This document shows, piece by piece, positions 1 through 60,215 of a DNA stretch of 64,000 nucleotides. The notes under the pieces are model-generated. The model saw only the letters and a list, made by a program, of their open reading frames with translations, was not told the DNA's origin and did no database searches. Source of the DNA: a bacterium (lineage in GTDB: Bacteria > Planctomycetota > UBA8108 > UBA1146). Each line of letters opens with the position of its first letter. The first letter of the stretch is position 1. The stretch is taken from positions 23,502 through 87,501 of the forward strand of contig JAPOLY010000002.1 in the NCBI GenBank assembly GCA_029976805.1, read 5' to 3'. The translations under genes and the position numbers were made by a program.

Positions 1-2
1 CC

Positions 3-947: not shown

Positions 948-1948
948 AATGCCTCGTGACGGGTGCCGGTGGTTTTATCGGTGGAAACATCACCCGCCGA
1001 CTCTTGAAGTTGGGGCATGAGGTTGTCACCTTTCAGCGAGGAAACTATCCCGAGCTGAATCAATTGGGTGGAACACACCTTCAGGGCAGTATCACTCAAA
1101 AAGAACTGCTCATGGACGCCATGAAAGAAGTCGATGCGGTTTTTCATGTTGCAGCACTGGCTGCCATCTCCGGCCCCCGTGAAGATTTTGAGCAAGCCAA
1201 CGTTCTGGGTACCAGAAATGTGATCGAAGCTTGCAAGGCTAATGGCGTCCAACGCCTGATTTTCACCTCTTCCCCAAGCGTGGTCTTCGATGGCAAAGAT
1301 CAAATCGGGATCGATGAATCAGAGTCCTACCCCAGCCATTATCTGGCAGATTATCCGAGAACCAAAGCCATCGCCGAGGCCGAGGTCATCGCTGCCAACA
1401 GCGATCAGTTTTGGACCATTTCACTTCGCCCTCATTTGGTTTGGGGCCCTGGAGACCGACACCTTTTTCCACGAATCATCGAACGTGCACGTCAGGGTAA
1501 GTTGAAATTGGTACGTCGTCGTGGCATGAAAATCGACGCTTGCTACATCGACAATGCAGTGGATGCCCATATCTGTGCCTTGAATCAGATCGCCACCAAT
1601 CCTGATTGCAGGGGAAAATCGTACTTTGTCTCTAATGGAGAACCCACTTCACCGGAAGATCTGATCAACAGCTTCCTCTCTTGTGCAGAAATGAACCCGA
1701 TTCGCCCATCCGTCTCTCCATTTCTCGCAAAGGCTGCCGGCTGGCTGATTGAAAATATCTACAGAACATCCTTCTTCAGTGGCGAGCCCCCTCTCACTCG
1801 ATTCGTTGCCCACCAGCAATCCACCAGTCACTGGTTTGACCTTTCCGCAGCCAAGCGGGATCTCGATTGGCAACCCACCATTTCTACCGCAGTTGGTATT
1901 GAACGTCTCAGACAGCATCATTCTGAGGAAGAGCCCGTCTCGACATGA
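944..1948 (+). CDS. NAD(P)-dependent epimerase/dehydratase of the 3-beta-HSD family; OleD-like 2-alkyl-3-oxoalkanoate reductase candidate
   Basis: N-terminal Rossmann motif VTGAGGFIGG, plus RPHLVWGPGDRHLFPR and YFVSNGEP motifs. Translationally coupled to flanking genes by ATGA overlaps on both sides. Confidence 0.75.
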   Translation: MKCLVTGAGGFIGGNITRRLLKLGHEVVTFQRGNYPELNQLGGTHLQGSITQKELLMDAMKEVDAVFHVAALAAISGPREDFEQANVLGTRNVIEACKANGVQRLIFTSSPSVVFDGKDQIGIDESESYPSHYLADYPRTKAIAEAEVIAANSDQFWTISLRPHLVWGPGDRHLFPRIIERARQGKLKLVRRRGMKIDACYIDNAVDAHICALNQIATNPDCRGKSYFVSNGEPTSPEDLINSFLSCAEMNPIRPSVSPFLAKAAGWLIENIYRTSFFSGEPPLTRFVAHQQSTSHWFDLSAAKRDLDWQPTISTAVGIERLRQHHSEEEPVST

Positions 1949-2703
1949 GTTCATTTGCTGAAGATCACCATAAAGAAGAGCAACCGGTCATCGAGATTGA
2001 CACCTGGAAGTTCAGCCTCAGCGGCAAACCGGACTCGATTCAAAATCACCTGGAAGACCTCGTAGGAGAAGAAAGACAGAGAATCGAACAGGGTATTTTT
2101 CCGGAATTAGGGGAACGAGCCACTCGTTCACGTCTCGGATTACGCTGGATTCTTGCTGACTATCTGCAGTGCAAACCTCATGAAGTCCCTTTGATTATCG
2201 GGGAACACGGAAAGCCGGAACTCGATTCAGAATCTTCCCATTTTCAAAACCTTCACTTCAATCTGAGTCATTGTGGAGATCGCGCTCTGATGGCGGTCAG
2301 TTGGGATTCTGTTTTGGGGGTCGATCTCGAACGGATTAGGGAAGAATCCCCCATCGAAGACCTCGCTCAGCGTTGTTTCTCCGAAATAGAACGAAATGCA
2401 TGGCAGGAATCACCTGCAGATCTGCGACGAGTCTCGTTTTTTCATCTCTGGGTTCAAAAAGAAGCGATGGTCAAGGCCCATGGGGATGGCATGACCCTTC
2501 CATTGAGACTCTTTTCTGGAAACCCCGACTCGCAGGCTCTTGAAGGAGCGATCACTTCAGAGTTACCAGAAATTGGAGTAAACCTCTGGCGTTATCGTGC
2601 CGAAGTTTGCTCCGAAGACCTTCGGTCCGCGATCGTCTTCAAGGGCAAGGAAGCAAAGATATCCGATTGTGACCCCAGCAGGGTCGGTCTCAGTCGATGG
2701 TGA
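1945..2703 (+). CDS. 4'-phosphopantetheinyl transferase (Sfp-type)
   Basis: PPTase motifs GKPEL, FNLSHCGDRALMAV, LGVDLERI and WVQKEAMVKAHG. Confidence 0.85.
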   Translation: MSSFAEDHHKEEQPVIEIDTWKFSLSGKPDSIQNHLEDLVGEERQRIEQGIFPELGERATRSRLGLRWILADYLQCKPHEVPLIIGEHGKPELDSESSHFQNLHFNLSHCGDRALMAVSWDSVLGVDLERIREESPIEDLAQRCFSEIERNAWQESPADLRRVSFFHLWVQKEAMVKAHGDGMTLPLRLFSGNPDSQALEGAITSELPEIGVNLWRYRAEVCSEDLRSAIVFKGKEAKISDCDPSRVGLSRW

Positions 2704-4513
2704 TCGTCAGGACACCCGGTCCCAACTCCGATTGACTGAGGGAATCGAATCCCCCCACCCGAATGAAATAGTGATCTCCTTCTGAAACAACGAAATCGTT
2801 GATCCTGGAAGTCAAAAGCGGGCAAGGATCCCCCTGCGCATCAACACCGTCTCCATTGCAGGCCTGCTGGACCAGCTGTCCACATGATCCGCTATAGATC
2901 ACCATATCTGAGTCAAATACCACTTCATTAGAGCACAGAGAGAAGGTCGCGTTTCCTGTTGAAGGTACCGTAAAGTCGAACCAGATATCGGCGTACATCT
3001 GTCCCAGGAAGGTGGATTCACAACCGGCGTCATCATAAGGATCCGTCGAATCTGTCATCAAAGACGTGTCAAAATTGTTATCTCCAAGTGTCACTGTGAT
3101 AGCACTGGCGCATTCATCCCCGGGAAACCCTGCACCACAGGTGACGTCAGGGCAGCCTGTGTCACATCCCAATGAGTCGGGTGTGGGATCCAGCCCCGCC
3201 AACGGGAATGGTGCAGCGGGTTCTGCTCCGCCCGTAAAGAGGAATGCCAGAAGGTTGACTGCGTCAGAAAGATCGAGTGAAGCGTCGTCGTTAAAGTCGG
3301 CAGCAGAAGCGCAGGGCATATCACCAAAAACAAAAAGGTACTGCAAAAGGGTCACCGGATCGACGAGGTTGAGTTCTCCATCACTATCGATGTCTCCTCG
3401 AATGAAGAGAACATCAGGAATAGGCAGAAAGATCTCGCAGGGCTCGGAATCGGCAGTGGTACCCGCCAAAGAACAGCGAAGAACATAATCCAGAGTGATT
3501 CCGGGTATGGGTCCGGAATCGACAAAGCTGTTCTCGAGTGAATTCAGAGTCGCAATCAGGTTTCCCTGCCTCAACACATCCACCTGTTCATAAGGCAGTG
3601 GGTTTTCCCATGTCAAGAGAACGGTGTTTGCATTTTGTGTACAACTCAAACCTATGGGAGTCTCAAGATCTCCATCTATAGAAACTTCACAAGAAACATC
3701 AGGCGAAGTGACCCCCGCCAGAATTCCTCTCAAAGAGTAGGATCTCTCGGTTCCAATCAAAGCGTCAGAATCTTCAAAGAAACCAAGACCACCGGAAATT
3801 TCTGCAATGAGCAATCCGTCTCTGCGGATTTGAATCTGTGAATAATCCACCGGTTCCTGCCAGGTCAGGAACACAGTTTCAGCAACTTCCCCACAAACCA
3901 ATTCGGTGGGACGTAAAACATCACTGATTTCCAAATCCAGAGTTCCCGGAAGTGTCGGCAGAATGACCCCATTCTGATCTGTGACGATGGAGCCGATCCA
4001 ACCACATGTCAGGTCCGGATCCGGTGTGGAAAGTTGAATCAGACCATTCGGTGCATTTCCGACGACCCTGAACTCCAGTTGGGCGATGGGAGTCGATGTC
4101 GCCGACAAACTCTCACTGAGAATCAATCCCAGACTGAATGCTTCCTGACCGGAACCATCCCACCAACTTGCACAACCCTGATCTCCACCACTTCCAGCAG
4201 GCTCAGGTGCATTCCAAACAAGAATTTCGGGGTCAGGTGATCCGTTCAGCGACCCTGGTAAGTCGACGGATAACAATTGGAGAGAGCCTGAGTCCCATGC
4301 AACCGCATGCTGTAAACCACGAACGGTCTCGCCAGATGGATTCTCCAGTGAAAGATCTACGACGAAGGACTCACCCGGAGCATAGACACTTGCCTGACTG
4401 CTCAGATTCAACTCGATTTGCTGACCCATTGCTGAAGAAGACAATAAGCATATGCAGAGCATAACGAAAACAGGGCTTTGGCTAACCTCTGCGAAACATT
4501 TCTGAAATGACAT
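2690..4513 (-). CDS. Secreted multidomain protein: cohesin-like N-domain, two Fn3-like repeats, dockerin-like module, C-terminal six-Cys domain
   Basis: Signal peptide MSFQKCFAEVSQSPVFVMLCICLLSSSAMG, with GGAGGGG seven nt upstream of the ATG at 4513. Two ~80-aa repeats (LVCGEVAETVFLTWQEP... and LSCTQNANTVLLTWENP...). FIRGDIDSDGELNLVD...DFNDDASLDLSDAVNLL...PFP dockerin-like EF-hand pair. The track ORF extends to 4561. Confidence 0.7.
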   Translation of the reverse strand: MSFQKCFAEVSQSPVFVMLCICLLSSSAMGQQIELNLSSQASVYAPGESFVVDLSLENPSGETVRGLQHAVAWDSGSLQLLSVDLPGSLNGSPDPEILVWNAPEPAGSGGDQGCASWWDGSGQEAFSLGLILSESLSATSTPIAQLEFRVVGNAPNGLIQLSTPDPDLTCGWIGSIVTDQNGVILPTLPGTLDLEISDVLRPTELVCGEVAETVFLTWQEPVDYSQIQIRRDGLLIAEISGGLGFFEDSDALIGTERSYSLRGILAGVTSPDVSCEVSIDGDLETPIGLSCTQNANTVLLTWENPLPYEQVDVLRQGNLIATLNSLENSFVDSGPIPGITLDYVLRCSLAGTTADSEPCEIFLPIPDVLFIRGDIDSDGELNLVDPVTLLQYLFVFGDMPCASAADFNDDASLDLSDAVNLLAFLFTGGAEPAAPFPLAGLDPTPDSLGCDTGCPDVTCGAGFPGDECASAITVTLGDNNFDTSLMTDSTDPYDDAGCESTFLGQMYADIWFDFTVPSTGNATFSLCSNEVVFDSDMVIYSGSCGQLVQQACNGDGVDAQGDPCPLLTSRINDFVVSEGDHYFIRVGGFDSLSQSELGPGVLTITID

Positions 4514-4603
4514 GTTGAACCCCTCCGAGATCCCAATAACCGTCAGGTTCAAGGATATCACCGGGGCTAAAATTTCCGCTTCAGGAAATCGCGATTATCA
4601 AAT

Positions 4604-6859
4604 TCAGGTCAGAGTATTGAGCGCTGCACCCGCCCAAAACCACTTCACCTGACTTTCGCTACAGGTGTGACTGCAAACAGCACGATCCTCTGAACCATCC
4701 TGATGACGGAAAACAGCGGTCAAAGTGGTGCCAGGAGCCAACTCTTCCAGTCCCTCTATGGTGACCACGTCACCTTGGAGAACCTTGTCATAATCGGCAG
4801 GATCCTGGAATCTAAGCGGCAAAATTCCCTGCTTTTTCAGATTCGTTTCATGAATCCTCGCAAAGGAACGAACGATGACAACTCCACAACCCATGAATCG
4901 GGGACACATGGCCGCATGTTCACGACTCGACCCCTCACCGTAATTTTCATCGCCGACAACCGCCCAAAAATGACCGGAATCCCTGAGGGAGGCTGCTATC
5001 TCATGCAGAGGTTTGCTGCTCCCTGTTTCAGGATCGTTCCCAAGCCCTGGACTGTCGTGGAATGCATTGACCGCACCCAGGAACATGTTGCGCGATATAT
5101 TTTCCAGATGGCCCCGGAACTTTAGCCATGGGCCGGCAGGTGAGATGTGGTCAGTGGTGCATTTGCCATTTGCCTTGAACAAAAGTGGCATATCCACCAG
5201 CTGCTCAGCTTCACGCGGTTTGAAAGGCTTTAACAGTTGAAGCCGCTCACTGTTTTCTGCGACGTCCACCACGACTGAGGTCCCTGACTCTGGTGGAGCG
5301 ACAAATCCCTCGGAATCCGTGACGAATCCCTGATCTGGAAGGCTGTCCCCTTCCGGTACCGGAAGTTTGATTTCCTCACCACTCTCGGTCGTGACGGTAT
5401 CTGTGAGAGGATTGAAATCGAGGGTGCCTGCGATCGCAAAAGCCGTCACCAGATCTGGGCTGGCAATAAAGGAAAGGGTTTGGGCATTTCCGTCATTACG
5501 CCCCGGAAAATTCCGATTGAACGAGCTGACGATACTGTTGGAAGTCCCCTTTTCCATATCATCCCTTTGCCACTGACCAATGCACGGGCCGCAAGCGTTG
5601 GCGAGTACAGTCCCCCCCAGATTCTCAAAGATTCCTGCCTGACCATCACGCTCGACAGTCTTGAAGACCTGAGTCGAACCAGGAGAAACAAGAAACTGGC
5701 TTTTTGCCTTCAGACCAGCCTTGACGGCTTCATCTGCGATGGAGGATGCTCTGTCCATGTCTTCATACGAGGAGTTCGTGCACGAACCGATGAGGGCTGC
5801 ACTGATTTCCAATGGCCAGCCATTTTCCTTTGCCTCTGCGCCCAACGCAGACACGGGCCTTGCCCGGTCAGGTGAATGGGGACCGACAACATGAGGCTCG
5901 AGAGAATCGAGATCAATCTCAAGAATCTGGTCGTAAAATTCTGACGGGTTTTCTTCGACTTCAGCGTCGGGAGCAAGAAGATCAGCATGGTCTCTTGCCA
6001 AAGTGGCAAGGTCTCCCCTGCCTGTCGACTCGAGGTACAGCGCCATCGCCTCGTCAAACGGGAACACTGAGCAAGTTGCCCCGATTTCTGCCCCCATATT
6101 GGTAATTGTCGCTTTACCAGTACAGGAAATCGAACGGGCCCCATCGCCGATGTATTCAACGATGGCACCGGTACCACCCTTGACTGTCAGCTCTCCTGCA
6201 ACCTTGAGGATCACGTCTTTGGCGGAAGTCCAACCACCCAGATTTCCCTTGAGATGCACAGCAATGGCTCCGGGCCACTTGACGTTCCAGGGCAATCCTG
6301 CCATCACGTCAACGGCGTCGGCTCCACCAACACCGACAGCCAGCATTCCCAGTCCACCCGCGTTTGGAGTGTGACTGTCCGTACCAATCATCAATCCACC
6401 GGGGAACGCATAATTCTCGAGAACGACCTGATGAATAATCCCGGAACCCGGCTTCCAGAAACCGATACCGTACTTCTCTGAAGACGAGCGAAGGAATCGG
6501 TAAACTTCAGCATTGACCTCTTCCGCTGCAGCAAGGTCAGTTTGCGCCTCATGACGTGCCTGAATCAGGTGATCACAGTGGACGGTGGAAGGAACCTGGA
6601 CCTGATCAAGTCCGGCCTGCATGAATTGAAGAATCGCCATCTGCGCAGTCGCATCCTGCATCGCCACCCTGTCAGGACGCAAATCACAGTAATCTTGACG
6701 ACGCTCCGGAACGGAAGTCAGGGTCTCCTGATCGACCTCAAGGTGCGAAAACAGGATTTTTTCGGCAAGAGTCAGTCCTCTGCCCAAAACCTGTCGAGCC
6801 TGATCGTGGCGTTGACGTGCATTTTCGTAAAGCCCGCGAATTGCGTGAATATCCGTCAT
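4604..6859 (-). CDS. Aconitate hydratase (about 750 aa, mitochondrial-type aconitase family)
   Basis: Full-length aconitase-like sequence with IGTDSHTPNAGGLG, the cluster-ligand context GSCTNSSYEDM, ANACGPCIGQW and a C-terminal swivel domain. AGGAG lies seven nt upstream of the ATG at 6859. The track ORF extends to 6880. Confidence 0.9.
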   Translation of the reverse strand: MTDIHAIRGLYENARQRHDQARQVLGRGLTLAEKILFSHLEVDQETLTSVPERRQDYCDLRPDRVAMQDATAQMAILQFMQAGLDQVQVPSTVHCDHLIQARHEAQTDLAAAEEVNAEVYRFLRSSSEKYGIGFWKPGSGIIHQVVLENYAFPGGLMIGTDSHTPNAGGLGMLAVGVGGADAVDVMAGLPWNVKWPGAIAVHLKGNLGGWTSAKDVILKVAGELTVKGGTGAIVEYIGDGARSISCTGKATITNMGAEIGATCSVFPFDEAMALYLESTGRGDLATLARDHADLLAPDAEVEENPSEFYDQILEIDLDSLEPHVVGPHSPDRARPVSALGAEAKENGWPLEISAALIGSCTNSSYEDMDRASSIADEAVKAGLKAKSQFLVSPGSTQVFKTVERDGQAGIFENLGGTVLANACGPCIGQWQRDDMEKGTSNSIVSSFNRNFPGRNDGNAQTLSFIASPDLVTAFAIAGTLDFNPLTDTVTTESGEEIKLPVPEGDSLPDQGFVTDSEGFVAPPESGTSVVVDVAENSERLQLLKPFKPREAEQLVDMPLLFKANGKCTTDHISPAGPWLKFRGHLENISRNMFLGAVNAFHDSPGLGNDPETGSSKPLHEIAASLRDSGHFWAVVGDENYGEGSSREHAAMCPRFMGCGVVIVRSFARIHETNLKKQGILPLRFQDPADYDKVLQGDVVTIEGLEELAPGTTLTAVFRHQDGSEDRAVCSHTCSESQVKWFWAGAALNTLT

Positions 6860-46182: not shown

Positions 46183-47139
46183 ATGAAGTCAGCTCTGACA
46201 GGGATCCTGTTTCTGTGCCTTTTGATGTTCGTTGCGACCCCCTTCCTTTCTGCGACCGAAAAGGCCGCCGAAGGTCTTTCCTGGGAAACGGATATCTCCG
46301 TTGCCATGGAGAAGGCCAAAAAGGAGGGCAAGGACATTCTGATCAACTTCACCGGCAGTGACTGGTGCGGCTGGTGCAAAAAACTCGACGCCGAGGTTTT
46401 CTCCAAGCCGGACTTTGATGCCACTGCAGGCAAGCAGTTCGTCTACCTTTACCTGGATTTCCCCCAGGCTGAAGAGCTGAAAGCCAAAGTGGTTGACCCC
46501 AAAATGAATGACAAGCATCGCGATGAGATGGGAGTCAACGGGTACCCCACCATCATGCTCGCCGATGCCATGATGCGCCCTTACGGTCGTACCGGATACC
46601 TTCCGGGTGGACCCGAAGCTTATCTCAAGAATCTCGAGGAGTTGCGTACCGAAGGAGACAAGCTGAGGAAGATGCTTGTCGCTGAAGATGCGGAAGCCGG
46701 CAAGATGCTCGCTGACGTTTTTGGCGTGTTGAGCAAAAACGAGCTTCTCGGATACCCCGGATATTCCAAGTATCTGGAGATGGCTGAGAAATCTGACAAC
46801 GCCGATCTGAAAAAATTGGTCGCCGCCCACAAGTCCAACATGCGTCTCAAAGAGTTGATGAACACCCGCGAGCCGGACTTCCCGACACTGGTCGCTTTCC
46901 TGACCGAAAACCCGGAGGCCAGCGGACCGGATGCCCTCAATGCTCTCTGGTTTGCCCACCAGTGGTTGGCTGAGCAAGATCGCAGGGACGAGGCCAAAGC
47001 TTTCCTGAATCGCATGCTCAAAGATCCTCTGGTCGCCGACAATCCTCAGGGCAAGCAGATGATCGAACAGGCCATCCACAATCTGGACCATCCTGACGGA
47101 AACCATGACCACGACGGTGACGGGGTTCCCGACCACTAG
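46183..47139 (+). CDS. Secreted thioredoxin-family protein with a His/Asp-rich C-terminal tail
   Basis: Signal peptide MKSALTGILFLCLLMFVATPFLSA. FTGSDWCGWCKKLD (CxxC). Tail HPDGNHDHDGDGVPDH. The mirror ORF 46189..47136 on the minus strand has no recognisable motif. Confidence 0.8.
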   Translation: MKSALTGILFLCLLMFVATPFLSATEKAAEGLSWETDISVAMEKAKKEGKDILINFTGSDWCGWCKKLDAEVFSKPDFDATAGKQFVYLYLDFPQAEELKAKVVDPKMNDKHRDEMGVNGYPTIMLADAMMRPYGRTGYLPGGPEAYLKNLEELRTEGDKLRKMLVAEDAEAGKMLADVFGVLSKNELLGYPGYSKYLEMAEKSDNADLKKLVAAHKSNMRLKELMNTREPDFPTLVAFLTENPEASGPDALNALWFAHQWLAEQDRRDEAKAFLNRMLKDPLVADNPQGKQMIEQAIHNLDHPDGNHDHDGDGVPDH

Positions 47140-47160
47140 GCCGGCCTCCCGTACACATTG

Positions 47161-47201
47161 AAACGGAGGGTGGATCCCCGGGGATCCACCCTCCGTTTTT
47201 T
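47161..47201 (+). terminator. Rho-independent terminator
   Basis: AAACGGAGGGTGGATCCCCGGGGATCCACCCTCCGTTTTTT: long perfect palindromic stem followed by a T-run. Confidence 0.9.
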
Positions 47202-47263
47202 GATGCCTGATCTACAAATTGGATCACTTCTGCCCGTAAACCGACTGATCAGCATTCTCGAAA

Positions 47264-49171
47264 TTGCGCCCAGTCGTTATGATCGTGAGCAGAAGAGGGA
47301 GCAATACTTTGGCCAGGGACACCAAGCCCAAACCAGGATGTGAAGGATTTCGCCGATCCGGCAACCGGACCCCCGGTCGTTCGGGAAAGCGACGGGCATG
47401 GGTTCTCGGATTTGTCCATCTCCTCATCGCAGGCCATCTGATTCACTGGTGGGTCACGGGGCGCACCCTCTCTCCTATCGAACCTTCAGAGAGTATGTAC
47501 ACTCTCGAAAATGGTCAGGTGAATGCGGGCTTCATCTTTTTTGTGGTCGCCATCTTGTCGACCGCAGTACTGGGGCGGTGGTTCTGTGGCTGGGCATGTC
47601 ACATGGTGGCACTCCAGGACCTGTGTGGCTGGATGATGAAAAAAGTCGGAATCACGCCCCGCCCCTTCCGCAGCCGCCTGCTCTCCCTGATCCCCTTCAT
47701 TCTCGCCTTCTACATGTTTCTCTGGCCCACCTTCAAACGGGAAGTGTTTCCCATCATTGAATCTTTCCTTCCGGGAGTGACCTCGTGGTTCGCCCCCGTG
47801 AAAGCATGGCCGGGATTCAGCAACCACCTTTTCGTGGAAGATTTCTGGGCCACATTCCCTTCGGTCATCGTCTCGATTCCATTCTTTCTGATCTGCGGGT
47901 TCGTCGTGGTCTACCTTCTGGGGGCCAAAGGTTTCTGTACTTATGGGTGCCCCTATGGAGCCTTCTTCAACATTGCTGACCGTGTCTCACCGATGCGCAT
48001 CGTCGCAGACATGTCGAAGTGTGAATCGTGTGGATTGTGCACGGCAAACTGCACCTCCAATGTTCAGATCTCCCGTGAAATCCGGGTTCATGAGCAGGTG
48101 GTCGATCCGGGCTGCATGAAGTGCCTCGACTGCGTGGATGTCTGCCCCAACAGCGTGCTTTCATTTGGTTTGGGGAAGCCAGGACTCTTGGCGAGCAAAG
48201 GTCCTGAAGCAAAAAAAATCGCCCGAAAATCTCAGCTCTCCTGGGGTGGTGAACTGGCACTCGCATTGGTGTTTGCCCTGAGCTGGTTCAGTTGGCGTGG
48301 AGTCTATGAGCAAGTCCCCCTGCTGATGGCCACCGGGATCGCACTGATGGTGACGTTTCTGAGTTGGAAAGCAGCTCAGTTGTTGAAGGAGAAGGATGTT
48401 TCCCTGCAGCAACAGCCCCTTCGGAGATCCGGGAGGTGGACTTCATCCGGCAAGTGGGTTCTCGTCACGGCTTTCCTCTGCCTGACGATGACGGCCTCTG
48501 CAGGGAAATCCCGTTGGGACCTCCAGCAGTCCTCCCAATGGATGGAGAAAGCGGCGGTCAATCTGGATCAGGTCTTTTTGCCGGGGAAACCTCCGGTCCC
48601 AGCCGAAGCCATCTCCGCGGCTGAAAGTGCGCTCGGGTTTTTACACTCACAACTCTCTGTCACCCGGGGTGGATTCGCCCTCTTTGAGCCGGAGGGGACC
48701 CGCCTTGAAGAACGACTCGGTTACATGAGCGCCGTGTCCGGTGATCTCGCTGAGGCCAAAAGATGGTGGAGCAGCGCTCTCGAAGAACCTCTCGAACCGA
48801 GCCACGATCTGGTGTTGCGTTTTGGCCAACTGATTGAAAAGCAGGAGGGCCCGAAGGCATTGGCCGACTGGCTGAACTCCTCCAGAGAGCGCTGGGGGTT
48901 AATCCCTCCCCTTGTCACTCTTCGGGGAATTCTGGCGCAGAAACAGGCTACTGCCTCTGTTCAGAATGGAAGCTACTTTGCTGCGGCCCTGCACTTGGAA
49001 GCCCTGATCCCCTGGATCGGACCCAACCCCGGCTTGCTCGATGACATGGGTCGACTGCTCGACTCAGCGGTCCCGAGTCAGGAAGTTGACGAGATGCGTC
49101 AACGCCTCAGCCAACTTCGATCCAACAACGTTATTCCGGGATCCACTTCAGGGACGGTTCAGGAAGACTGA
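47264..49171 (+). CDS. Polytopic 4Fe-4S binding membrane protein (CcoG/FixG/NapH-like N-part) with a long C-terminal helical domain of unknown function
   Basis: RWFCGWACHMVALQDL, GFCTYGCPYGAFFN, CESCGLCTANCTS and CMKCLDCVDVCPN. Start uncertain. Confidence 0.7.
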   Translation: MRPVVMIVSRRGSNTLARDTKPKPGCEGFRRSGNRTPGRSGKRRAWVLGFVHLLIAGHLIHWWVTGRTLSPIEPSESMYTLENGQVNAGFIFFVVAILSTAVLGRWFCGWACHMVALQDLCGWMMKKVGITPRPFRSRLLSLIPFILAFYMFLWPTFKREVFPIIESFLPGVTSWFAPVKAWPGFSNHLFVEDFWATFPSVIVSIPFFLICGFVVVYLLGAKGFCTYGCPYGAFFNIADRVSPMRIVADMSKCESCGLCTANCTSNVQISREIRVHEQVVDPGCMKCLDCVDVCPNSVLSFGLGKPGLLASKGPEAKKIARKSQLSWGGELALALVFALSWFSWRGVYEQVPLLMATGIALMVTFLSWKAAQLLKEKDVSLQQQPLRRSGRWTSSGKWVLVTAFLCLTMTASAGKSRWDLQQSSQWMEKAAVNLDQVFLPGKPPVPAEAISAAESALGFLHSQLSVTRGGFALFEPEGTRLEERLGYMSAVSGDLAEAKRWWSSALEEPLEPSHDLVLRFGQLIEKQEGPKALADWLNSSRERWGLIPPLVTLRGILAQKQATASVQNGSYFAAALHLEALIPWIGPNPGLLDDMGRLLDSAVPSQEVDEMRQRLSQLRSNNVIPGSTSGTVQED

Positions 49172-52705: not shown

Positions 52706-53008
52706 ATGCAAACCGGCAACCCCAGCCCTGAAAAGAGTGTGCGACCCTCGCTGGAACAGGCGGCTCTCAGCACGTCTGCTCAGGTCAGATCACTCTTCGA
52801 CATGAAATTGGGAGATCGGGGCCGCCTGGTAGAAGAGTCGATCCCCCAGAATCAGCGCCCCCTCCTGGAAGCGATGGGCATGTGCGGGGATTGTGAACTC
52901 CGGGTTTGCCACAATTCCGGTTCCTGTATTCTGGAGATCGACGGACAAAGGGTAGGGCTCAGCGAAGAGATCGCCTCTTCCCTTCGGGTTCTCCCCCTGG
53001 ACAGTTGA
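52706..53008 (+). CDS. feoA: FeoA family protein
   Basis: FeoA/SH3-like pattern LFDMKLGDRGRLVEE...LLEAMGMCGDCELRV...ILEIDGQRVGLSEEIASSLRV. Confidence 0.75.
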   Translation: MQTGNPSPEKSVRPSLEQAALSTSAQVRSLFDMKLGDRGRLVEESIPQNQRPLLEAMGMCGDCELRVCHNSGSCILEIDGQRVGLSEEIASSLRVLPLDS

Positions 53009-53133: not shown

Positions 53134-53823
53134 GTGAAGACTGACATGACCCGATTCTACAAGCAGTCCGGATTTACCCTTGCTCGCTCCAACACCTCCA
53201 CCCGTTGGCTCCTAACGCTCTTTTTTCTGACCGTCATCGCTGGCTGTGTCGTTGCTGCAGTTCAGTACTCCAGCAGTGCAGGAGGATTCTCCGTCGACAA
53301 TGCCCGAGAATGGGTTCTGGGCAATGAGGACGACCTCGATGCTGAAGAATTGATGTCCGAAAAAACTCCCAGGGAACTGCTCTCCTTTATTCATGACCAT
53401 ATCTTCTCTCTGGGAATGTTGCTCTTCGTTGTCCTGCACCTGTTTGAACTGACTCCCTGGTCGACTGGGGTCAAGGTCACCCTTTCCTTCACAGGCTTTG
53501 GAAGTCTTGTCGGGTTGCTCTTCTCACCCCTCGCCATTGCTTCCGGAAGTTCAATGGCACTCTTCACCCAGATCATCGGTGGAAGCCTTCTGTTGCTCAG
53601 TCTGGTACTGGGATCTTTGGCGTGCCTCGACGAGCTGTGGTGGGCCCCTCGCCGAAGAAATCGAGCGGGCAAGGCCGATCCCCCGGCATCAAATCCGCTC
53701 TTTCCGGCCAAAGGCTCGGGAAAGCCTGACTCGGACAACCCTGACTCGGGAAGCTGCCCCATGGGCTTTGGATCGGATCAAAAAAATCCCGGGAAACCTT
53801 CCTCAGAAGATTCCCCGGGATAA
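53134..53823 (+). CDS. Membrane protein of unknown function (about 4 TM helices, Pro/Gly/Ser-rich C-tail)
   Basis: ORF with hydrophobic helices, directly downstream of feoA. No motif recognised. Confidence 0.5.
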   Translation: MKTDMTRFYKQSGFTLARSNTSTRWLLTLFFLTVIAGCVVAAVQYSSSAGGFSVDNAREWVLGNEDDLDAEELMSEKTPRELLSFIHDHIFSLGMLLFVVLHLFELTPWSTGVKVTLSFTGFGSLVGLLFSPLAIASGSSMALFTQIIGGSLLLLSLVLGSLACLDELWWAPRRRNRAGKADPPASNPLFPAKGSGKPDSDNPDSGSCPMGFGSDQKNPGKPSSEDSPG

Positions 53824-53849: not shown

Positions 53850-55019
53850 TTACTTACTCTTTTCAGTGGCCTGTTCGGCTTTCGCTTCCTGAACCAGCAA
53901 CTCGATGGCGTCATCCATTTCTTTGCCACGGACATCCTTGTAACGAATGATTCCCTTGGCGTCGATCAGGTAGATCGTCGGCCAACCGGTCACGTTCCAA
54001 CGCGTTGAAATCGGTCCGCCCGGACTCCCATCGTAAAAACTGAGCCAGTTGATCTTGTTTTTCTCGACCACTTCACGGGCTTTTTCAATGGAGGAATCCG
54101 AGTTGATTCCGACGATGGCAAAAGGATCTGCAGAGTATTTCTCCACGAGCGACCGCTCGTGTGGGTACATGGCCCTGCAGGGACCTCACCAATCACCCCA
54201 GAAATCAAGCAGGATCACCTTGCCTCGGAAAGAGGACAGCTGCATCAGCTTGCCGGAGATCTCCTTGCCGATGATTTCGGGTGCGACACAACCGACCTGA
54301 AGATTCTTCATTTCGAAAAGGTCGCCTTTGACCTTGTCGGCATAAACGGATCTCCCGTAAGAGACATCTCCATACTCATCCTGGACCCTTTTGAGCAGAG
54401 CCAGGCCCTCACTGCGGGTTTCTTCCTTCTTGCCCTTGATCTTGGCAAGAGAATAACAGCCGGCGGCCTGAACTTCCCTGTGAGGAGAGTCACTGACGAC
54501 CACGCTGAGAAAATCGCACATGGCTGGCGCCATGGCCTCCGAGCAGTAGTGGGAGTAGCGCAAGACGTCGGCCAGTTTCTCGTTCTTCAGGTAGTGAGTC
54601 TTGAGCGCCGACATGGCCTTTTCAGCCATCCAACCGGCAGATTCACTTCTGCCAGCCAAAGCCAGCATTTGGTCGCAAGCACCGAGGGCTGCTTCTGTCC
54701 CCGCATACTTGTCGATGGTTTTGAGCATCTCCGGGCCGACGACCATTACTGGATCGAGTGCCGGATCGAGTTCGATCTTCTCCATCTCTTTATCGCTGAG
54801 ACCTTTTTCCCGAGCCTCTGTCAGGGGCTTGTAATAAGCCTCCTGAGCCTTATTCATTTTTTTGTTGATCTCTTCAAATGCCTTTTCAGCGGCCGCTTCC
54901 ATCTTTTCGTCTGCGACCCCCACTGAAACGGGGGAATAAGAGAAAGCCACTGCCGGACCCGACAGCATAAAAGCGATTACGAGACAAACGGTCCCGTATC
55001 GACGAAGACGAGGAATCAT
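53850..55019 (-). CDS. TlpA/ResA-like thiol-disulfide oxidoreductase, candidate selenoprotein (in-frame UGA at 54186..54188 read as Sec in a UxxC redox motif)
   Basis: Track ORFs 54186..55070 and 53850..54170 are in the same frame. Read-through gives ...GKVILLDFWGDW-U-GPCRAMYPHERSLVEKYSADPFAIVGINSD...GWPTIYLIDAKG, a canonical thioredoxin-fold W-C-G-P-C context with TGA at the first Cys. Neither half is a complete fold alone. Signal peptide MIPRLRRYGTVCLVIAFMLSGPAVAFS from 55019. Confidence 0.75.
54128..54185 (-). promoter_or_regulatory. SECIS-like stem-loop immediately 3' of the in-frame UGA
   Basis: In the mRNA, the lower stem pairs CUGCAGGG with CUCUGCAG. The upper stem CACGAGC/GCUCGUG (7 bp) closes a GGUC apical loop that starts 32 nt after the UGA. 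Confidence 0.6.
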
Positions 55020-55112
55020 GGGATACCCTTCCAATTTTGACCTTCCGGTCGATCCACATCCGTGGATCAAACTGAAAACAAAGATACCACAGTGAAATAA
55101 ATTGGCAGGGTC

Positions 55113-55232
55113 CTATTTGGAGCAGGGTCCACAATCTCCTCCGGACGCGCGGCTCCGCTTCCGGACCAGCAACAGGAGAGCGATAACTGCGAGGAGAGTC
55201 ACGATCCAGAATTGGGGATCGGATTCAAACAT
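55113..55232 (-). CDS. FeoB-associated Cys-rich small membrane protein (39 aa; below the ORF-track length cutoff)
   Basis: MFESDPQFWIVTLLAVIALLLLVRKRSRASGGDCGPCSK: one TM helix, a basic stretch and a C-terminal Cys pair. Starts 7 nt after the feoB stop. Confidence 0.6.
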   Translation of the reverse strand: MFESDPQFWIVTLLAVIALLLLVRKRSRASGGDCGPCSK

Positions 55233-55238
55233 GGATCC

Positions 55239-57182
55239 TCACTCCCACCCGAGAAGCAGAATCAGCATGCGCATGGCTGCAGCCATGCCCCAAGCCAGAA
55301 GGCTCATCCATGTCAACTGAAGGATCGCCCACTTCCATGCCCCGGACTCCTTACGAGTGACCGCAAGCGTGGGCAGGCATTGCATTGCCAGCACGAAAAA
55401 GACCAACAATCCAGCAGCCGACGAGGGCGTCAAAAGAGGCGAACCATCATCGCGCCTGGAGTTTCTGATCTTGTCCATCAAAGGTTCCGCCTCTGCCTCT
55501 TCACCGGTTCCCAATAGAACACTGGTTGAGGACACAAAAACTTCCCTGGCGGCAAAACTGGCCATGATCGAAATCGACAACTGCCAATCGGCTCCGATGG
55601 GTGCAAACACCGGCTCCACACTCTTGCCGATACGACCCAGGTAGGAAGCGGCTGTACTCTCTCGAGAAGCGAGAGAATCCGCTTCCTCGACGAGCGCTTC
55701 GGCTTCCTCTACAGATTCCACCGCTTCAGCTTTGGCTCGCAAATCGGCGACTGCTGAACTCTCCGTACTCTTGGGGTAGGTTCCCAACCACCAGAGAACA
55801 ATACACATCAGCAGAATGACGGTTCCCGCATTTTTCAGGAAGATCCAACCACGCTGGCAGGCGATTTTCAGGGAGTCCACCAATGACGGTCGCTGAAAGG
55901 GAGGCAGCTCGAGAACCAGATCGGGACTCGGCCCTGGCAACAGGAAACGCCGAACTATCCAGGCGCTGAAGACCGCTGCCAATGCTCCCAGCAGGTAACA
56001 CCCGGCAAAAGCCAATCCGGCAATGAAGGGATTTTCAGGAAAGAGCAACCCCACCAGTAATTGGTAAACCGGCAATCTGGCGGCGCAAGAGAGGAATGGA
56101 GCAACCAGAATCGCTGCCAGACGATCCTTGCGATCCGGAATCAAACGCGTGCACAAAATTCCCGGAATGGCACAGGCGTGACTCGACAACAAGGGAACGA
56201 AGGAATGCCCCGGCAGGCCGAACGGCCTCAGCCAACGATCCGCAACCAATGCGGCACGGGCCAGATAACCGGTTTCCTCCAAAATACTGATGAGGAAAAA
56301 CAGCAGCAAAACCTGAGGCAGGAAAATCAGTGTACCCGATACCCCACCGATGATTCCCTCGACGACGAGACTTCTGACCTCGCCTTCCGGCATGCTTGTA
56401 GAAACCCAATCCGCGATCAAAGCAAAGGTATTGTCGAGCCATTCCATGGGAATCTGGGCCAACCAGAACACACATCCAAAGAGCAGGCTCATGATGATGA
56501 AAAAGGTCGTCAGCCCCCAGAAGGGATGTAGCAGGAATCGATCGAGGCGATCCTCTTTTTCCCTTCTCTTTCGGGCCTCCTCTGGTCGAACCGGGCGTGT
56601 CACCGCTGCGACAGTATCGTCGACCCATTTCGAGTCGAGAACCGTATCCTGGGGACTCACGGGCCGCTCTGCCGCTGCCAGAATAAATTCTTTGAGGCCT
56701 GCATTTCGGTGAGCATGCCGATGTGCCAGTTCCAATACAGGGACCTGAAGCATCTCCTCCAAGCGCTGGAAGTCGATCTCAACGCCCCTGAGTCGTGCTT
56801 CATCGGTTCGGGTCACAATGACCGCATTGGGCGTTCCTTTTTGCATGCACTCGGCCAACAGGTTCATGTTTCTGCGCAAGCTGACCGCATCGATCACACT
56901 GACGATCAAGTCGGACTTTTGGGGGGCACCCAAATGTTGTTGGCAATGACGGGATTCGGGAAGGTCCAGTTGAAGCCCGTAGCATCCGGGGAGATCCGTG
57001 ACCTCTACATCGATGTCTCCCCAGCGATCCTTACCCACCAGCGATTCTGCAGTGATCCCGGGAAAATTGGAGACTCTGGCATTCCCCGTCACAAGGGCAT
57101 TGAAGAGGGTGGATTTTCCAACGTTGGGATTACCGGTAACAGAGATGCGGAGTGTTTTTCCGGATTGTTCTTGGTTCTTCAC
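55239..57182 (-). CDS. feoB: Ferrous iron transport protein B
   Basis: N-terminal G-domain GNPNVGKSTLFNAL and DLPG, followed by a polytopic membrane domain. About 650 aa. Confidence 0.9.
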   Translation of the reverse strand: MKNQEQSGKTLRISVTGNPNVGKSTLFNALVTGNARVSNFPGITAESLVGKDRWGDIDVEVTDLPGCYGLQLDLPESRHCQQHLGAPQKSDLIVSVIDAVSLRRNMNLLAECMQKGTPNAVIVTRTDEARLRGVEIDFQRLEEMLQVPVLELAHRHAHRNAGLKEFILAAAERPVSPQDTVLDSKWVDDTVAAVTRPVRPEEARKRREKEDRLDRFLLHPFWGLTTFFIIMSLLFGCVFWLAQIPMEWLDNTFALIADWVSTSMPEGEVRSLVVEGIIGGVSGTLIFLPQVLLLFFLISILEETGYLARAALVADRWLRPFGLPGHSFVPLLSSHACAIPGILCTRLIPDRKDRLAAILVAPFLSCAARLPVYQLLVGLLFPENPFIAGLAFAGCYLLGALAAVFSAWIVRRFLLPGPSPDLVLELPPFQRPSLVDSLKIACQRGWIFLKNAGTVILLMCIVLWWLGTYPKSTESSAVADLRAKAEAVESVEEAEALVEEADSLASRESTAASYLGRIGKSVEPVFAPIGADWQLSISIMASFAAREVFVSSTSVLLGTGEEAEAEPLMDKIRNSRRDDGSPLLTPSSAAGLLVFFVLAMQCLPTLAVTRKESGAWKWAILQLTWMSLLAWGMAAAMRMLILLLGWE

Positions 57183-57225: not shown

Positions 57226-58842
57226 TCAGCGCTGAGTGCGTCCGACAAAACGCGGCTGGCTCTCACCCTCAATCAGAATCACTGCGGAAGCATTCGGGCA
57301 GTTATTCAGGATCGATCGTGCCCCCTCTTGTCCGAGAAGAGCAACAGTGGTGCTCAAGGCATCCGCCTCGGTGGCACTGCTGGAAAGCACTGAAGTGGTC
57401 AGAATACGTCCTTGCGAAGAATTGTCGAGAAGTTGCACCAGGTGATCCCCGCGTTCATAGCACGCGGTGGTCGCCAGTGAGGAGCGAATCAGTGCAAGCT
57501 CATGAAGGACAGATTTGCCATCCCGGGGGTCGTGGATCCCCACAGCCCATGATTTTTCACCGGGGGGCGGATCGAGAGCCAGCAGTTGGCCTCCGAAATC
57601 GAGAAGAGCACGGGAGCAACCGTGAGACTCGAGTACGACGGCCGCACGATCGAGGGCATAACCCTTGCCGATTCCTCCCAAGTCGAGAATCAGACCGGGA
57701 CGCAACAGAGTGATCGTCTCCTTTTCCCGATCCACCTTGACGCTGCGGAAGCCATCCTTCTTCAGAGTCAAATCGAAGGCTCCACCACTCTCCCTGGACA
57801 TGGCGAGTGCTTTTTCGACGACCTCGATGGTTTCCCGGGCAACCTTGACCGGCTCTCCCACAGGTGCCGCTTCTACCCTCAAGACGTCGCTCCCCGCTTT
57901 CCAGCGGCTGTGCAACGATTCCAGGCGCTCTACTTCAGAATAAGCGGCTTCCACGGCCTTGAGTGCCTGCTCTCCGTAGACCTCCATCTTGAGGACGGTT
58001 CCCATGGCGGGACGAGCCCTCTCGACAGGTGCATCTTTATCTCCCAACCCTGATCTGAGCACAGAAACTTCCTCAGGGCCCGCAGCAGAAACCGGTTCCG
58101 CCGAGGCGGGTTCACCGTAAGCCAGAGATGAGCCGGAAAGAGATTGCCAAACCAGATCCAGATTCTGTTTCTGCGAAACCTCAACAGTCGCCATCGATCT
58201 TCGCACTGCGCGAACAGCCGCGCGGGCAGAGAGAGTCGCTCCTGAGAGATTACGGATTCCGCGGTGGAGCTTCAGCGACTTGCCGAGTTTTTTATTTCTG
58301 AACTGCCGGGTGAATCGCGGAGATTCAATCTCTTGGCCGATGTGCTCTCGGTAAACAAGAACCTGAAGGTCGAGGACACGAAGATCATTGTCGAGAGCAA
58401 CAAAGAAAGTGATGGGACGATACTTACCGACCTCATCGAGGATCACCACAGATCCCAGTCTGTTGCCTTGGGGAGAGGTGACCCGGAACAGGGTGGTCTG
58501 TTGGTCCCTGGTTCTCACCCTGCTGATCTCAACGATCTTCTTCTTCACTTCCCCTTCGACTGGAACATGACAGCGCTCCACGTGTACATCCGCACTCCAC
58601 AGATCTGCGATCAGATCCCTGCTGAAGAAGCCGGAGGTCTTTTCGGGGAGCGTCGTCTCAGTCGACACACCCGTCTCCGAAGAGACGGATTCAGATGTAC
58701 CTGGCCCAAGGGCCAGTGCCTGAGAAGAAACCGACAGAACCAACAGCAAACCCGCAACCAACCCGCGGTACCGGAAGCAGACCCGCGACTCGCGGATCTG
58801 TTCGGAATGCGTGCTGAAATCACTGCAGGAAACGGGGCTCAT
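57226..58842 (-). CDS. Secreted fusion protein: FMN-binding domain (RnfG/NqrC/NosR type) plus ApbE-like FAD:protein FMN transferase
   Basis: Signal segment RYRGLVAGLLLVLSVSSQALA. FMN_bind-like segment ending NLSGATLSARAAVRAVRRSM (SGAT flavinylation motif). ApbE-like MGTVLKMEVYG, FDLT, DLGGIGKGYALDRAA and ATEADALSTTV. The start at 58842 is preferred because the track TTG start at 58938 lies inside palindrome copy 2. Confidence 0.75.
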   Translation of the reverse strand: MSPVSCSDFSTHSEQIRESRVCFRYRGLVAGLLLVLSVSSQALALGPGTSESVSSETGVSTETTLPEKTSGFFSRDLIADLWSADVHVERCHVPVEGEVKKKIVEISRVRTRDQQTTLFRVTSPQGNRLGSVVILDEVGKYRPITFFVALDNDLRVLDLQVLVYREHIGQEIESPRFTRQFRNKKLGKSLKLHRGIRNLSGATLSARAAVRAVRRSMATVEVSQKQNLDLVWQSLSGSSLAYGEPASAEPVSAAGPEEVSVLRSGLGDKDAPVERARPAMGTVLKMEVYGEQALKAVEAAYSEVERLESLHSRWKAGSDVLRVEAAPVGEPVKVARETIEVVEKALAMSRESGGAFDLTLKKDGFRSVKVDREKETITLLRPGLILDLGGIGKGYALDRAAVVLESHGCSRALLDFGGQLLALDPPPGEKSWAVGIHDPRDGKSVLHELALIRSSLATTACYERGDHLVQLLDNSSQGRILTTSVLSSSATEADALSTTVALLGQEGARSILNNCPNASAVILIEGESQPRFVGRTQR

Positions 58843-58920
58843 CGACTTCTTCCTCTGATTGAAAGGGACGGTTTCGGGTTCCTTTTGCGGACCCGCCGAA
58901 AATAGAACTGATTTGGTACC

Positions 58921-58936
58921 GTTTGGCAACCCAAAC
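58921..58936. promoter_or_regulatory. Near-perfect palindrome GTTTGGCAACCCAAAC, candidate operator (copy 2 of 3)
   Basis: 79 nt upstream of the FMN-binding/ApbE start at 58842. Same 7-2-7 architecture as copies 1 and 3. Confidence 0.5.
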
Positions 58937-59060
58937 AAATGACTTCTTTTACTGCTTTTGATCAGATTTACCCAAATTCAGCCTTCAGACTCTCATTGCC
59001 CATATTTTGACAAGGATCCCCACTCCCACCCCGAAGGGCGAGAGTAGGGGAAAAAAGGGC

Positions 59061-60215
59061 TTAGAAGTAAGTCGCTGCTGAGAAGATGAAGGTTCCGTCG
59101 GGGTCCTCTGAACCCTCGATCGACTCCTGCTCGTAGTCGAATTTGAGAACCGTCTCATCCGTCGGTCGCATGTTGAAGCCGTAAGTCATACGGCTGGTCA
59201 CCGGGCCGGTGAGATCCTGCTCTTCCCAACGGATCGTCACAGCACAAGAGGAGTCATCCCCCCACAGGTTGGTGACGAAATCCGGGAAGAACTTTTTGGA
59301 GACTTCGATGGAAGTTGCGCTGATATCGTCGGGAACTCCACCGGCGATCGCCGCTGCGTCGCGGTCGATGGAGACATTCCCCAACTCAAAGTTCAGGATC
59401 GTCGCCCCCACTGCCTCAACCCAGCTGCCCAGATCGGTCGTAATATCGATGACGGTAATACTCAGATCGAGGTCACCGGCGTCATCCCAGGGACCAGTCC
59501 AATTTGAGAATCCAATTTCGGTTCCGAGCACAGGGCTGTAAGTGAAACGCCCCACAAAACTGGCGGGACGATCCCCTTTATTGGTTTTCAGGCTGGGACG
59601 TCCTCCACGAATACCGCTGGAAGTGTTGAAGTTGTACCCACCGGCACCGTCTTCACCCTGGAAACCGTTGACGGCATAGAACTCCATTCCCCAAGTTCCA
59701 TCATCCGCCCCCCACACTCCTCCCAAACCGGCACTGGTCATCGTTGAAGGAACGATAGAGCGGGCCACGAAAGGGCGGTTCGTCAACTGGCGCATGGGCG
59801 AGTCGTGGTAAAGGTTGGTGGAACCCAATGGGATCAGAATCGCTCCCGATCTGAGGGTCCAACCACCAAAATCCACATCGGCATAGGCGTATTCAACTTT
59901 GGTTTCACCATCACCTCTGGGAGCGCTGGCACCTCCATATTCGAATTCGATTTCGGCGGAGAAACTCACATTTTCGCTGATGTTCGCATCCAGCATTGGA
60001 ACCAGTCGATGCTGTTTGAAATCGAGACGATCACTGTTCATGAACAACTCGAGATCCAGGTATCCCCCCAGGCGAATATCCCGATCGCCTTCTGCCGCAG
60101 GGCGATTGTCGTAACGGTCAACCTGAGCTTCGAGAGCTCCAGAACTGGACAGAGTCAAAGCCAGTACACAGACCAAAAGTGTGATTCTGGTGCAGATCAC
60201 TTCGTTCGAAGGCAT
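59061..60215 (-). CDS. Outer-membrane beta-barrel porin-like protein
   Basis: Signal peptide ending SSGALEAQ, alternating amphipathic strands rich in G/Y/F/T, and a C-terminal aromatic residue (...SAATYF). Confidence 0.55.
   Translation of the reverse strand: MPSNEVICTRITLLVCVLALTLSSSGALEAQVDRYDNRPAAEGDRDIRLGGYLDLELFMNSDRLDFKQHRLVPMLDANISENVSFSAEIEFEYGGASAPRGDGETKVEYAYADVDFGGWTLRSGAILIPLGSTNLYHDSPMRQLTNRPFVARSIVPSTMTSAGLGGVWGADDGTWGMEFYAVNGFQGEDGAGGYNFNTSSGIRGGRPSLKTNKGDRPASFVGRFTYSPVLGTEIGFSNWTGPWDDAGDLDLSITVIDITTDLGSWVEAVGATILNFELGNVSIDRDAAAIAGGVPDDISATSIEVSKKFFPDFVTNLWGDDSSCAVTIRWEEQDLTGPVTSRMTYGFNMRPTDETVLKFDYEQESIEGSEDPDGTFIFSAATYF

Follow-up and report, generated by a model that had tools for sequence, protein, structure and literature searches.

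The locus and its in-frame UGA

The stretch of DNA considered here, 64,000 nucleotides (nt) of contig JAPOLY010000002.1 from the planctomycete assembly GCA_029976805.1 (positions 23,502 to 87,501 of the forward strand) and called the window in what follows, carries on its minus strand two adjacent open reading frames (ORFs) that, judging from comparative sequence analysis, very probably form a single gene, 53850..55019. Its product would be an exported TlpA-like selenoprotein with selenocysteine (Sec) specified by the UGA at 54186..54188, within reach of a hairpin that resembles a bacterial Sec insertion sequence (SECIS) element. The features on which this reading is built are as follows.

53850..55019, minus strand: the full candidate selenoprotein gene of 389 codons, one of them UGA (Sec278), with ATG at 55019 and TAA at 53852..53850
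54186..54188, minus strand: in-frame TGA, probably read as Sec, the first residue of the U-G-P-C redox motif
54939..55019, minus strand: N-terminal signal-peptide-like segment MIPRLRRYGTVCLVIAFMLSGPAVAFS, with a basic n-region, a hydrophobic core and AVA-FS, judged by eye
54303..54908, minus strand: alpha-helical repeat (solenoid) domain, residues ~38-239, from an AlphaFold2 model
53853..54296, minus strand: TlpA/ResA-like thioredoxin-fold domain with UGPC, from Pfam and PDB matches
54144..54161, minus strand: conserved apical hairpin CACGAGC-GGUC-GCUCGUG, nt 28-45 if the U of UGA is nt 1
54128..54180, minus strand: extended hairpin, in which CUGCAGGG/CUCUGCAG pair as a lower stem beneath the apical hairpin; it folds in the window and is not kept by the family
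53786..53821, minus strand: hairpin resembling an intrinsic terminator, with a 16-bp stem ahead of TTTTTTT, 29 nt past the TAA stop

Translation in the frame that opens at ATG 55019, with GGAAGGG 6 nt upstream of it, proceeds through 277 sense codons to the TGA and, if it continues, through 111 further sense codons to the TAA. The ORF track splits this frame into 54186..55070 and 53850..54170, and a preliminary description, made from the letters of the sequence alone, had proposed that the two share a frame with a single TGA between them; direct reading of the frame bears this out. The residue context of the TGA is LLDFWGDW-[TGA]-GPCRAMYPHERSLVEKY, and the second of the listed ORFs starts at a Met codon (ATG 54170, MYPHERSLV...) that lies 6 codons past the TGA. 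While a terminator-like hairpin follows the TAA, none comparable to it was found after TGA 54186.

In the window, which has a GC content of 55%, TGA is by far the preferred stop codon. It ends 27 of the 39 ORFs of at least 200 amino acids (aa), feoB included, and this ordinary use excludes a genome-wide reassignment of UGA. When all TGA-separated same-frame ORF pairs in the window were listed and scanned for hairpins, none besides the target had a GGUC hairpin. The combination of an in-frame TGA flanked by ORFs with a stem of at least 5 bp and a GGUC-type loop 14-40 nt downstream occurs at this one site when both strands of the 64 kb are considered, and with such uniqueness a chance origin is unlikely.

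Protein domains on either side of the UGA

With Cys substituted for the stop, the C-terminal 150 residues match Pfam at E ~1e-16, the families being AhpC-TSA (60.2 bits against a cut-off of 26), Thioredoxin_8 (59.4 against 27) and Redoxin (57.6 against 26.6). Sequence matches in the PDB are to solved TlpA, ResA and DsbE-type structures and include 2lrn (1e-17), 3gl3, ResA 4nmu and TlpA 1jfu; in these alignments the TGA occupies the column of the leading Cys in CxxC. The placing of the stop codon at the first redox Cys of a TlpA/ResA layout, as had been proposed at the outset, is sustained by both the Pfam matches and the alignment to solved structures. The domain scores far below the NCBIfam cut-offs for ResA (NF002854, 66.8 against 170), TlpA (NF047696, 58.8 against 230) and DsbE (TIGR00385, 49.2 against 123), and also below those of the curated selenoprotein models WAxxUGC_long (NF041054, 37.1 against 300), TUGYCR (NF053656, 17.1 against 100) and TsoB (NF045694, 18.9 against 805). 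Its motif is W-U-[GP]-P-C, unlike WAxxUGC or TUGYCR. By sequence comparison the protein is TlpA-like in fold and is not an orthologue of any characterised enzyme.

The 277-aa product that would result from termination at the UGA is modelled by AlphaFold2 as stacked helices throughout, with a mean predicted local distance difference test (pLDDT) score of 89.5 that rises to ~97 over residues ~38-239; the signal-like segment is represented by a helix at residues 6-19 with low pLDDT. The helical domain (~38-239) has no Pfam match, and a Foldseek search of the PDB with it returned only generic helical-repeat proteins, none with E < 0.01. It is also conserved in full-length homologues that have Cys at the UGA position, and from the model it may be read as a protein-binding scaffold.

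Conservation of the UGA among relatives

Relatives were collected in a metagenome scan and in a second scan that took a single genome for each GTDB species, the best 80 loci of the latter being considered, and the tblastn query by which they were ranked carried Cys at the TGA position, so the search was unbiased towards TGA. Among the metagenome loci 27 have TGA at the codon and 44, which are more distant, have TGC or TGT. TGA is also present in 78 of the 80 genome loci, corresponding to 88 genes when tandem paralogues are included. The two sets together provide 107 distinct 90-nt sequences with TGA, and not one with TAA or TAG; TGA is shared by all close and mid-distance orthologues. The hosts are uncultured Planctomycetota, Verrucomicrobiota and Kiritimatiellia known from metagenome-assembled genomes (MAGs), together with metagenomes, and the nearest relatives are in the marine planctomycete MAGs JACETR01, CAJXMG01 and JAAXJX01, with 96-97% protein and ~92-94% nucleotide identity.

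A protein search with the read-through sequence gave a corresponding picture. The 14 closest database homologues examined, from 96% down to ~35% identity, all end exactly at ...LDFWG[DN]W and are ~262-300 aa proteins without a Pfam domain, and one database protein that starts at MYPHERSLV is the C-terminal half called separately. More distant homologues (30-40% identity) are full length, at 330-430 aa, with WCGPC or WCPPC; the Cys homologues P0010 and P0011, for instance, have WCPPC and WCGPC, respectively, at the TGA column. Together with the first Cys of the PDB homologues, these Cys forms confirm that the column occupied by UGA is that of the CxxC Cys.

As a single base separates TGA from TGC or TGT, a Cys codon misread during sequencing or assembly, or one recently mutated so as to leave an inactive pseudogene, has to be considered, and one locus, L174, does have TGC in the same context. 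The identical TGA, however, is present in independent assemblies from many studies and habitats, across 35-97% protein identity, and the sequence downstream of it is under strong purifying selection (see below). Conservation effectively refutes error or inactivation as an explanation, and the chance that either accounts for the TGA is minute. The L174 sequence (4001..4999, encoding P0010, from GCA_905168365.1) reads TGG TGC CCG CCT TGC ... CAC GAG CGG TCG CTC GTG, with the hairpin fully intact and the change from TGA to TGC as the sole difference from its Sec relatives; it is either a very recent Sec-to-Cys conversion that left a ‘fossil SECIS’ or a base-call difference.

Many genomes of the Planctomycetes-Verrucomicrobia-Chlamydiae (PVC) group have the gene in duplicate, with 0.6-8 kb between the copies and a TGA and hairpin in each (L123, L124, L125, L126, L135, L143, L153, L161, L163 and L170).

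Genes of the PVC type were also encountered on contigs labelled as unrelated organisms, namely ‘Bacillota bacterium MAG 7’ (L106 and L152), an ‘Akkermansia muciniphila’ MAG (L139), a ‘Bifidobacterium sp.’ MAG (L167) and ‘Proteobacteria bacterium’ (P0140). The first of these, L106, shows the Feo synteny of marine planctomycetes described below. The unrelated labels look like binning or labelling errors in public MAGs.

Translation across the UGA

Codons +1 to +5 after the TGA encode [G/P]-P-C-R-A in essentially all sequences, and their third positions vary freely, the Pro codon at +2 for instance being CCC in 9 cases, CCG in 8, CCT in 7 and CCA in 1. Since these five codons are conserved as amino acids and are variable at their synonymous sites, the mRNA is evidently translated through the UGA. 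Beyond them, the downstream 100 codons have a ratio of nonsynonymous to synonymous substitution (dN/dS) of 0-0.15 in comparisons with relatives at dS 0.17-1.6, and the frame past the TGA stays open for 105-131 codons in all relatives.

On sequence grounds, amino-acid conservation at +1 to +5 would not be expected with termination at the TGA and restart at ATG 54170. That is the arrangement in which the TGA is a true stop and the locus makes two proteins, the 277-aa exported helical product and a 106-aa thioredoxin-fold fragment re-initiated at the ATG, possibly by translational coupling. Its attractions are that the Met 6 codons past the TGA is invariant in the Sec forms, that AGGG stands a few nt ahead of ATG 54170, and that gene callers annotate the split in every public MAG examined, as a ‘hypothetical protein’ and a small thioredoxin fragment. 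The 106-aa fragment, however, would start beyond the entire UxxC/CxxC motif and lack the first beta-strand of its fold, the supposed stop is TGA in 107 of 107 sequences, and the Cys homologues are single full-length proteins, a sister sequence with TGC among them. Production of two separate proteins is accordingly ranked as very improbable.

A SECIS-like hairpin frozen within the coding sequence

The GGUC loop of the apical hairpin is at 54151..54154. Counting from the first nt past the UGA, the loop opens with a G at nt 32, so that the distance from UGA to loop is 31 nt, and the 7-bp upper stem, CACGAGC/GCUCGUG, starts 24 nt past the UGA. An 86-nt region containing it folds with a minimum free energy of -33.5 kcal/mol (z = -3.07), and 1 of 200 shuffled sequences folds equally well. 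The hairpin had been described initially as two-tiered. Both tiers do fold in this sequence and the upper stem-loop is conserved; the lower stem is specific to the window and lies outside the conserved element, the pairs that enclose the apical hairpin being missing in 49 of the 107 relatives. The spacer between the UGA and the hairpin is also variable, with 84 distinct sequences among the relatives.

What is nearly invariant across the 107 distinct sequences is the core with a 6-bp stem, ACGAGC-GGUC-GCUCGU (ACGAGCGGUCGCUCGU). It is embedded in the codons CAC GAG CGG TCG CTC GTG, of which the six-fold-degenerate CGG, TCG and CTC are without synonymous variation (23 of 23, 22 of 22 and 24 of 24), in comparison with codon entropies of 1.2-2.0 bits for Leu, Ser, Arg, Gly, Val and Pro residues that are conserved to the same degree in other parts of the alignment. 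The Val codon has its third base immediately beyond the 6-bp core, and this base changes freely (G 66, A 13, C 10, T 7). Such frozen synonymous sites are, as far as an alignment can tell, the signature of an RNA constraint superimposed on the coding sequence.

The comparison of reference is the E. coli fdhF SECIS, GGUUGCAGGUCUGCACC, whose apical loop, GGUC, is bound by SelB, with G23 and U24 making contact, and whose stem begins 11 nt past the UGA. The hairpin considered here is likewise located within coding sequence just 3′ of a UGA and displays GGUC in its loop, and its 31-nt distance is inside the UGA-to-loop range of 16-37 nt used by bSECISearch.

The alternative from RNAalifold, in which the UGA region is paired, depends on Trp and Gly codons that do not vary; it was set aside.

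Machinery for selenocysteine insertion

Several observations weigh against assigning Sec to this UGA. ARAGORN found no tRNA in the window; SelA, SelB and SelD were not among ten size-matched window ORFs in a Pfam scan; and no sel genes are present in the 10 kb beyond the window start, which were reached by way of an identical protein and carry a PKS-like (polyketide synthase) cluster. With regard to the RNA, covariation in the stem is minimal, consisting of a single compensatory change, from G-C to A-U, besides two U-G wobbles, a score that 51 of 500 shuffles also reach. As the stem is essentially invariant, a formal covariation test is uninformative, and with covariation so slight the RNA evidence rests on the frozen synonymous sites instead. 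No curated Rfam family matches the hairpin; Rfam gave no match anywhere in the window at gathering threshold and, at a permissive E-value, returned for the hairpin region only a meaningless small nucleolar RNA match (E 0.97). The spacing of 24 nt between UGA and stem is longer than the 11 nt of fdhF, there is no bulged U, and the conserved stem is 6-7 bp.

The unseen sel genes and a spacing unlike that of the E. coli paradigm would both suit read-through that dispenses with Sec machinery, either by near-cognate insertion of Trp or Cys or through a recoding signal other than a SECIS, with an ordinary residue at the position. UGA, though, is the main stop codon here, the recoded position coincides exactly with the catalytic Cys column, and GGUC is the loop that SelB binds in E. 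coli fdhF. When E. coli SelA, SelB and SelD were used as local tblastn queries against all fetched loci, selA, selB and selD were found in three, L121, L142 and L151, all from verrucomicrobial MAGs, at 31-43% identity and E 1e-64 to 1e-86. ARAGORN detects a tRNA-Sec in each of these loci, as does Rfam RF01852 (60-62 bits, the gathering score being 47). The four genes share a strand in the order selB-selA-selD-tRNA-Sec and lie 0.8-1.5 kb upstream of the UGA-containing orthologue, which is divergent from them on the opposite strand. The regions with a Sec gene set and an adjacent orthologue are the following.

L121, 4163..8810
L142, 924..7708
L151, 2232..9168

Furthermore, complete Sec machinery and Sec decoding are documented in Planctomycetes (PMC4807772). 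Read-through that places an ordinary residue at the position is for these reasons given little credence, about as little as two separate proteins. That a Sec-coding UGA at a UxxC motif is served by a SECIS hairpin, as was first suggested from this sequence alone, is strongly supported by the conservation of TGA, the Cys homologues, the purifying selection, the frozen hairpin and the sel genes beside three orthologues.

Proposed mode of expression and action

In the scheme that the selenoprotein reading implies, UGA 54186..54188 would be read as Sec during translation, with the hairpin ACGAGC-GGUC-GCUCGU binding SelB·GTP·Sec-tRNASec and delivering it to the ribosome, as the conservation pattern and the E. 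coli fdhF paradigm suggest. The mature protein would be a thiol:disulfide reductase of the periplasm or envelope. By analogy with TlpA/ResA chemistry, the selenolate of Sec278 would attack a substrate disulfide, and Cys281 would then resolve the selenenyl-sulfide. Should selenium or the Sec machinery become limiting, ribosomes would stop at the UGA and only the 277-aa helical product would be made. The substrate might conceivably be found within periplasmic redox chemistry that supports Fe(II) uptake, a step proposed with much less assurance than the others.

The feoB neighbourhood

The gene is preceded on the same strand by the following.

55113..55232, minus strand: small ORF of 39 codons, MFESDPQFWIVTLLAVIALLLLVRKRSRASGGDCGPCSK, with one transmembrane helix and a C-terminal GGDCGPCSK (CGPC); it is unannotated and overlaps the end of feoB
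55239..57182, minus strand: feoB, upstream, with Pfam FeoB_N, Gate and FeoB_C matches on the orthologue
57226..58938, minus strand: FMN_bind and ApbE fusion protein, upstream of feoB, with Pfam matches on the orthologue

For the fusion protein of the window itself the ApbE and RnfG-type matches are sub-threshold. The small ORF has GGAG/GAGG upstream of its ATG, a 45-aa ORF is called at its place in L086 and L087, and it matches PF12669 (FeoB_associated) at E 0.0047 and 17.6 bits, below the cut-off of 27. It is likely to be a FeoB-associated Cys-rich membrane protein, and the UGPC protein encoded beside it could act on, or pair with, its CGPC tail.

feoB is directly upstream of the orthologue (38-97% identical) throughout the marine clade (L086-L089 and L092-L110), and a feoB fragment is two genes away in the two short sediment contigs L090 and L091. 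None is found within 10 kb in the remaining 61 genome loci (L111-L171). The preliminary description had placed the gene as the last member of a feoB operon and had taken this to point to a role in metal handling. The layout stands, with the apbE-like gene, feoB, the small Cys-rich ORF, the gene and a terminator in succession, and ‘last gene of feoB operon’ is correct for the marine planctomycete clade; the linkage is restricted to that clade, the family as a whole is not Feo-specific, and the role is deduced from position. An involvement in iron uptake is further weakened by synteny of the whole 20-kb neighbourhood within the marine clade, as the linkage to feoB could then reflect shared ancestry and not shared function.

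Redox chemistry that aids iron uptake is nevertheless the best available lead for local function, though one held with low confidence. The fullest version of it would cast the Sec-containing TlpA-like protein as a periplasmic redox partner dedicated to a module for Fe(II) uptake of the Feo type in the marine planctomycete clade, making efficient iron acquisition selenium-dependent, and would assign to that module a porin-like protein encoded upstream, the fusion of FMN_bind and ApbE, FeoB, the small membrane peptide with CGPC and the selenoprotein, with the alpha-solenoid as an adaptor that would recognise a Feo-associated substrate. This joint proposal is rather improbable.

The porin-like protein, of 384 aa, is encoded upstream of feoB on the minus strand (57226..60215 region) and matches the phosphate-porin-like PF07396 below cut-off (E 0.0011). 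Together with the FMN_bind-ApbE protein and feoB it forms a group that resembles the flavinylation and iron-transporter clusters of PMC8238504.

On the other side, where plus-strand genes occupy 53134..53823 and 52706..53008, an Aq_1264_TM membrane protein is encoded between feoA and the selenoprotein gene and, like feoA, is convergent with the latter. The assignment comes from a Pfam match on the orthologue, and there is a weak cytochrome b561-like match (E 0.004); the protein might carry electrons across the membrane on behalf of the cluster. Beyond it and feoA are a gene for a DtxR-like regulator and then one for ferritin.

Relation to known selenoproteins and redox proteins

Thioredoxin-fold selenoproteins with UxxC are a long-known class, and members of the present family can be recognized in earlier marine data. 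The Global Ocean Sampling (GOS) selenoproteome of Zhang and Gladyshev (2008, PMC2398784) includes a ‘Prx-like 1’ selenoprotein set (Prx-like proteins are also in PMC1794560 and PMC13188914), and the strings PHERSLV and WUPPCRAM occur in its sequence supplement (file 3) in the section ‘#Prx-like 1’. Reads there such as ...SDYRGKVVMLSFWGHW-U-GPCREMYPHERSLVEKH... (FWGHW-U-) and ...LLDFWGFW-U-PPCRRMIPHERSLVEKW... are alike in sequence, and the UxxC motif, thioredoxin fold and marine origin are shared. ‘Prx-like 1’ differs in being a broad bin of read fragments, most members of which have other motifs such as WUPYC. The two strings are not in the Sargasso Sea 2005 supplement. Identity with the ‘thiol-disulfide isomerase-like’ family from the Sargasso Sea is ruled out, the motif there being DW-U-TWC.

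With the extracytoplasmic thiol-disulfide oxidoreductases TlpA, ResA and CcmG(DsbE) (cd02966) the protein has in common its fold, the position of the redox motif and predicted export. In contrast to them, Sec stands in place of the first Cys and there is an extra alpha-solenoid domain of ~200 aa, and no genes for cytochrome-c or Cu-centre maturation were found near the selenoprotein gene.

Two published descriptions invite comparison. The ‘thiol-disulfide isomerase-like thioredoxin’ selenoprotein candidates of planctomycete P1 (Kim et al. 2016, PMC4807772, Table S9), as described, are likewise planctomycete proteins annotated as two ORFs, with a protein of another planctomycete as closest Cys homologue and full Sec machinery in the genome; they differ in that bSECISearch found no SECIS in them. 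Thioredoxin-like proteins encoded together with ApbE/FMN-binding proteins and iron transporters were reported by Meheust et al. (2021, PMC8238504), who proposed a redox aid to iron uptake. Going by the description, those clusters resemble the present one in encoding a periplasmic thioredoxin-like protein with an iron transporter and ApbE/FMN-binding proteins, and they differ in that the transporters are P19/Ftr1 or VIT1 instead of FeoB, and in having Cys, not Sec.

Within a limited literature search, the organisation of the full-length protein, N-terminal helical-repeat domain included, the spread of the family across PVC bacteria and the tandem copies seem to be undescribed, as do the near-invariant 16-nt SECIS core, the sel-gene neighbourhood in Verrucomicrobiota and the Feo context.

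Other features of the window

At 46183..49171 of the plus strand a Thioredoxin_7/DsbH-like exported protein (318 aa) is encoded beside a NapH-like polyferredoxin membrane protein (Fer4_5, 635 aa). They are a putative extracytoplasmic electron-transfer pair and are kept in all relatives of the clade.

The window starts within a large cluster resembling those for polyketide synthases (PKS) and polyunsaturated fatty acid synthases (1..2703, plus strand, and L175 1..11760). Its genes encode a 2295-aa ketoacyl-synthase/FabA protein, a thiolase-like ketoacyl synthase III, a hydrolase, an AMP-ligase, an epimerase and a phosphopantetheinyl transferase.

Significance

The gene is an unannotated addition to a known class of selenoproteins, and for specialists in that field fairly ordinary; what it brings is the correction of a widespread mis-annotation. 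In the scans the family is widespread among MAGs of Planctomycetota, Verrucomicrobiota and Kiritimatiellia, frequently as tandem copies, and no curated NCBIfam or Rfam model captures either it or its SECIS. A family model used together with the 16-nt SECIS core would correct many records. From a recoding perspective, it shows with unusual clarity a bacterial SECIS kept constant within coding sequence and, in L174, what may be a switch between Sec and Cys by a single nucleotide, with a fossil SECIS as its relic. The placement of the gene behind feoB in the marine clade hints, speculatively, at a selenium-dependent step in iron uptake, and, if that were true, there would be a direct nutritional coupling of selenium and iron in ocean bacteria.

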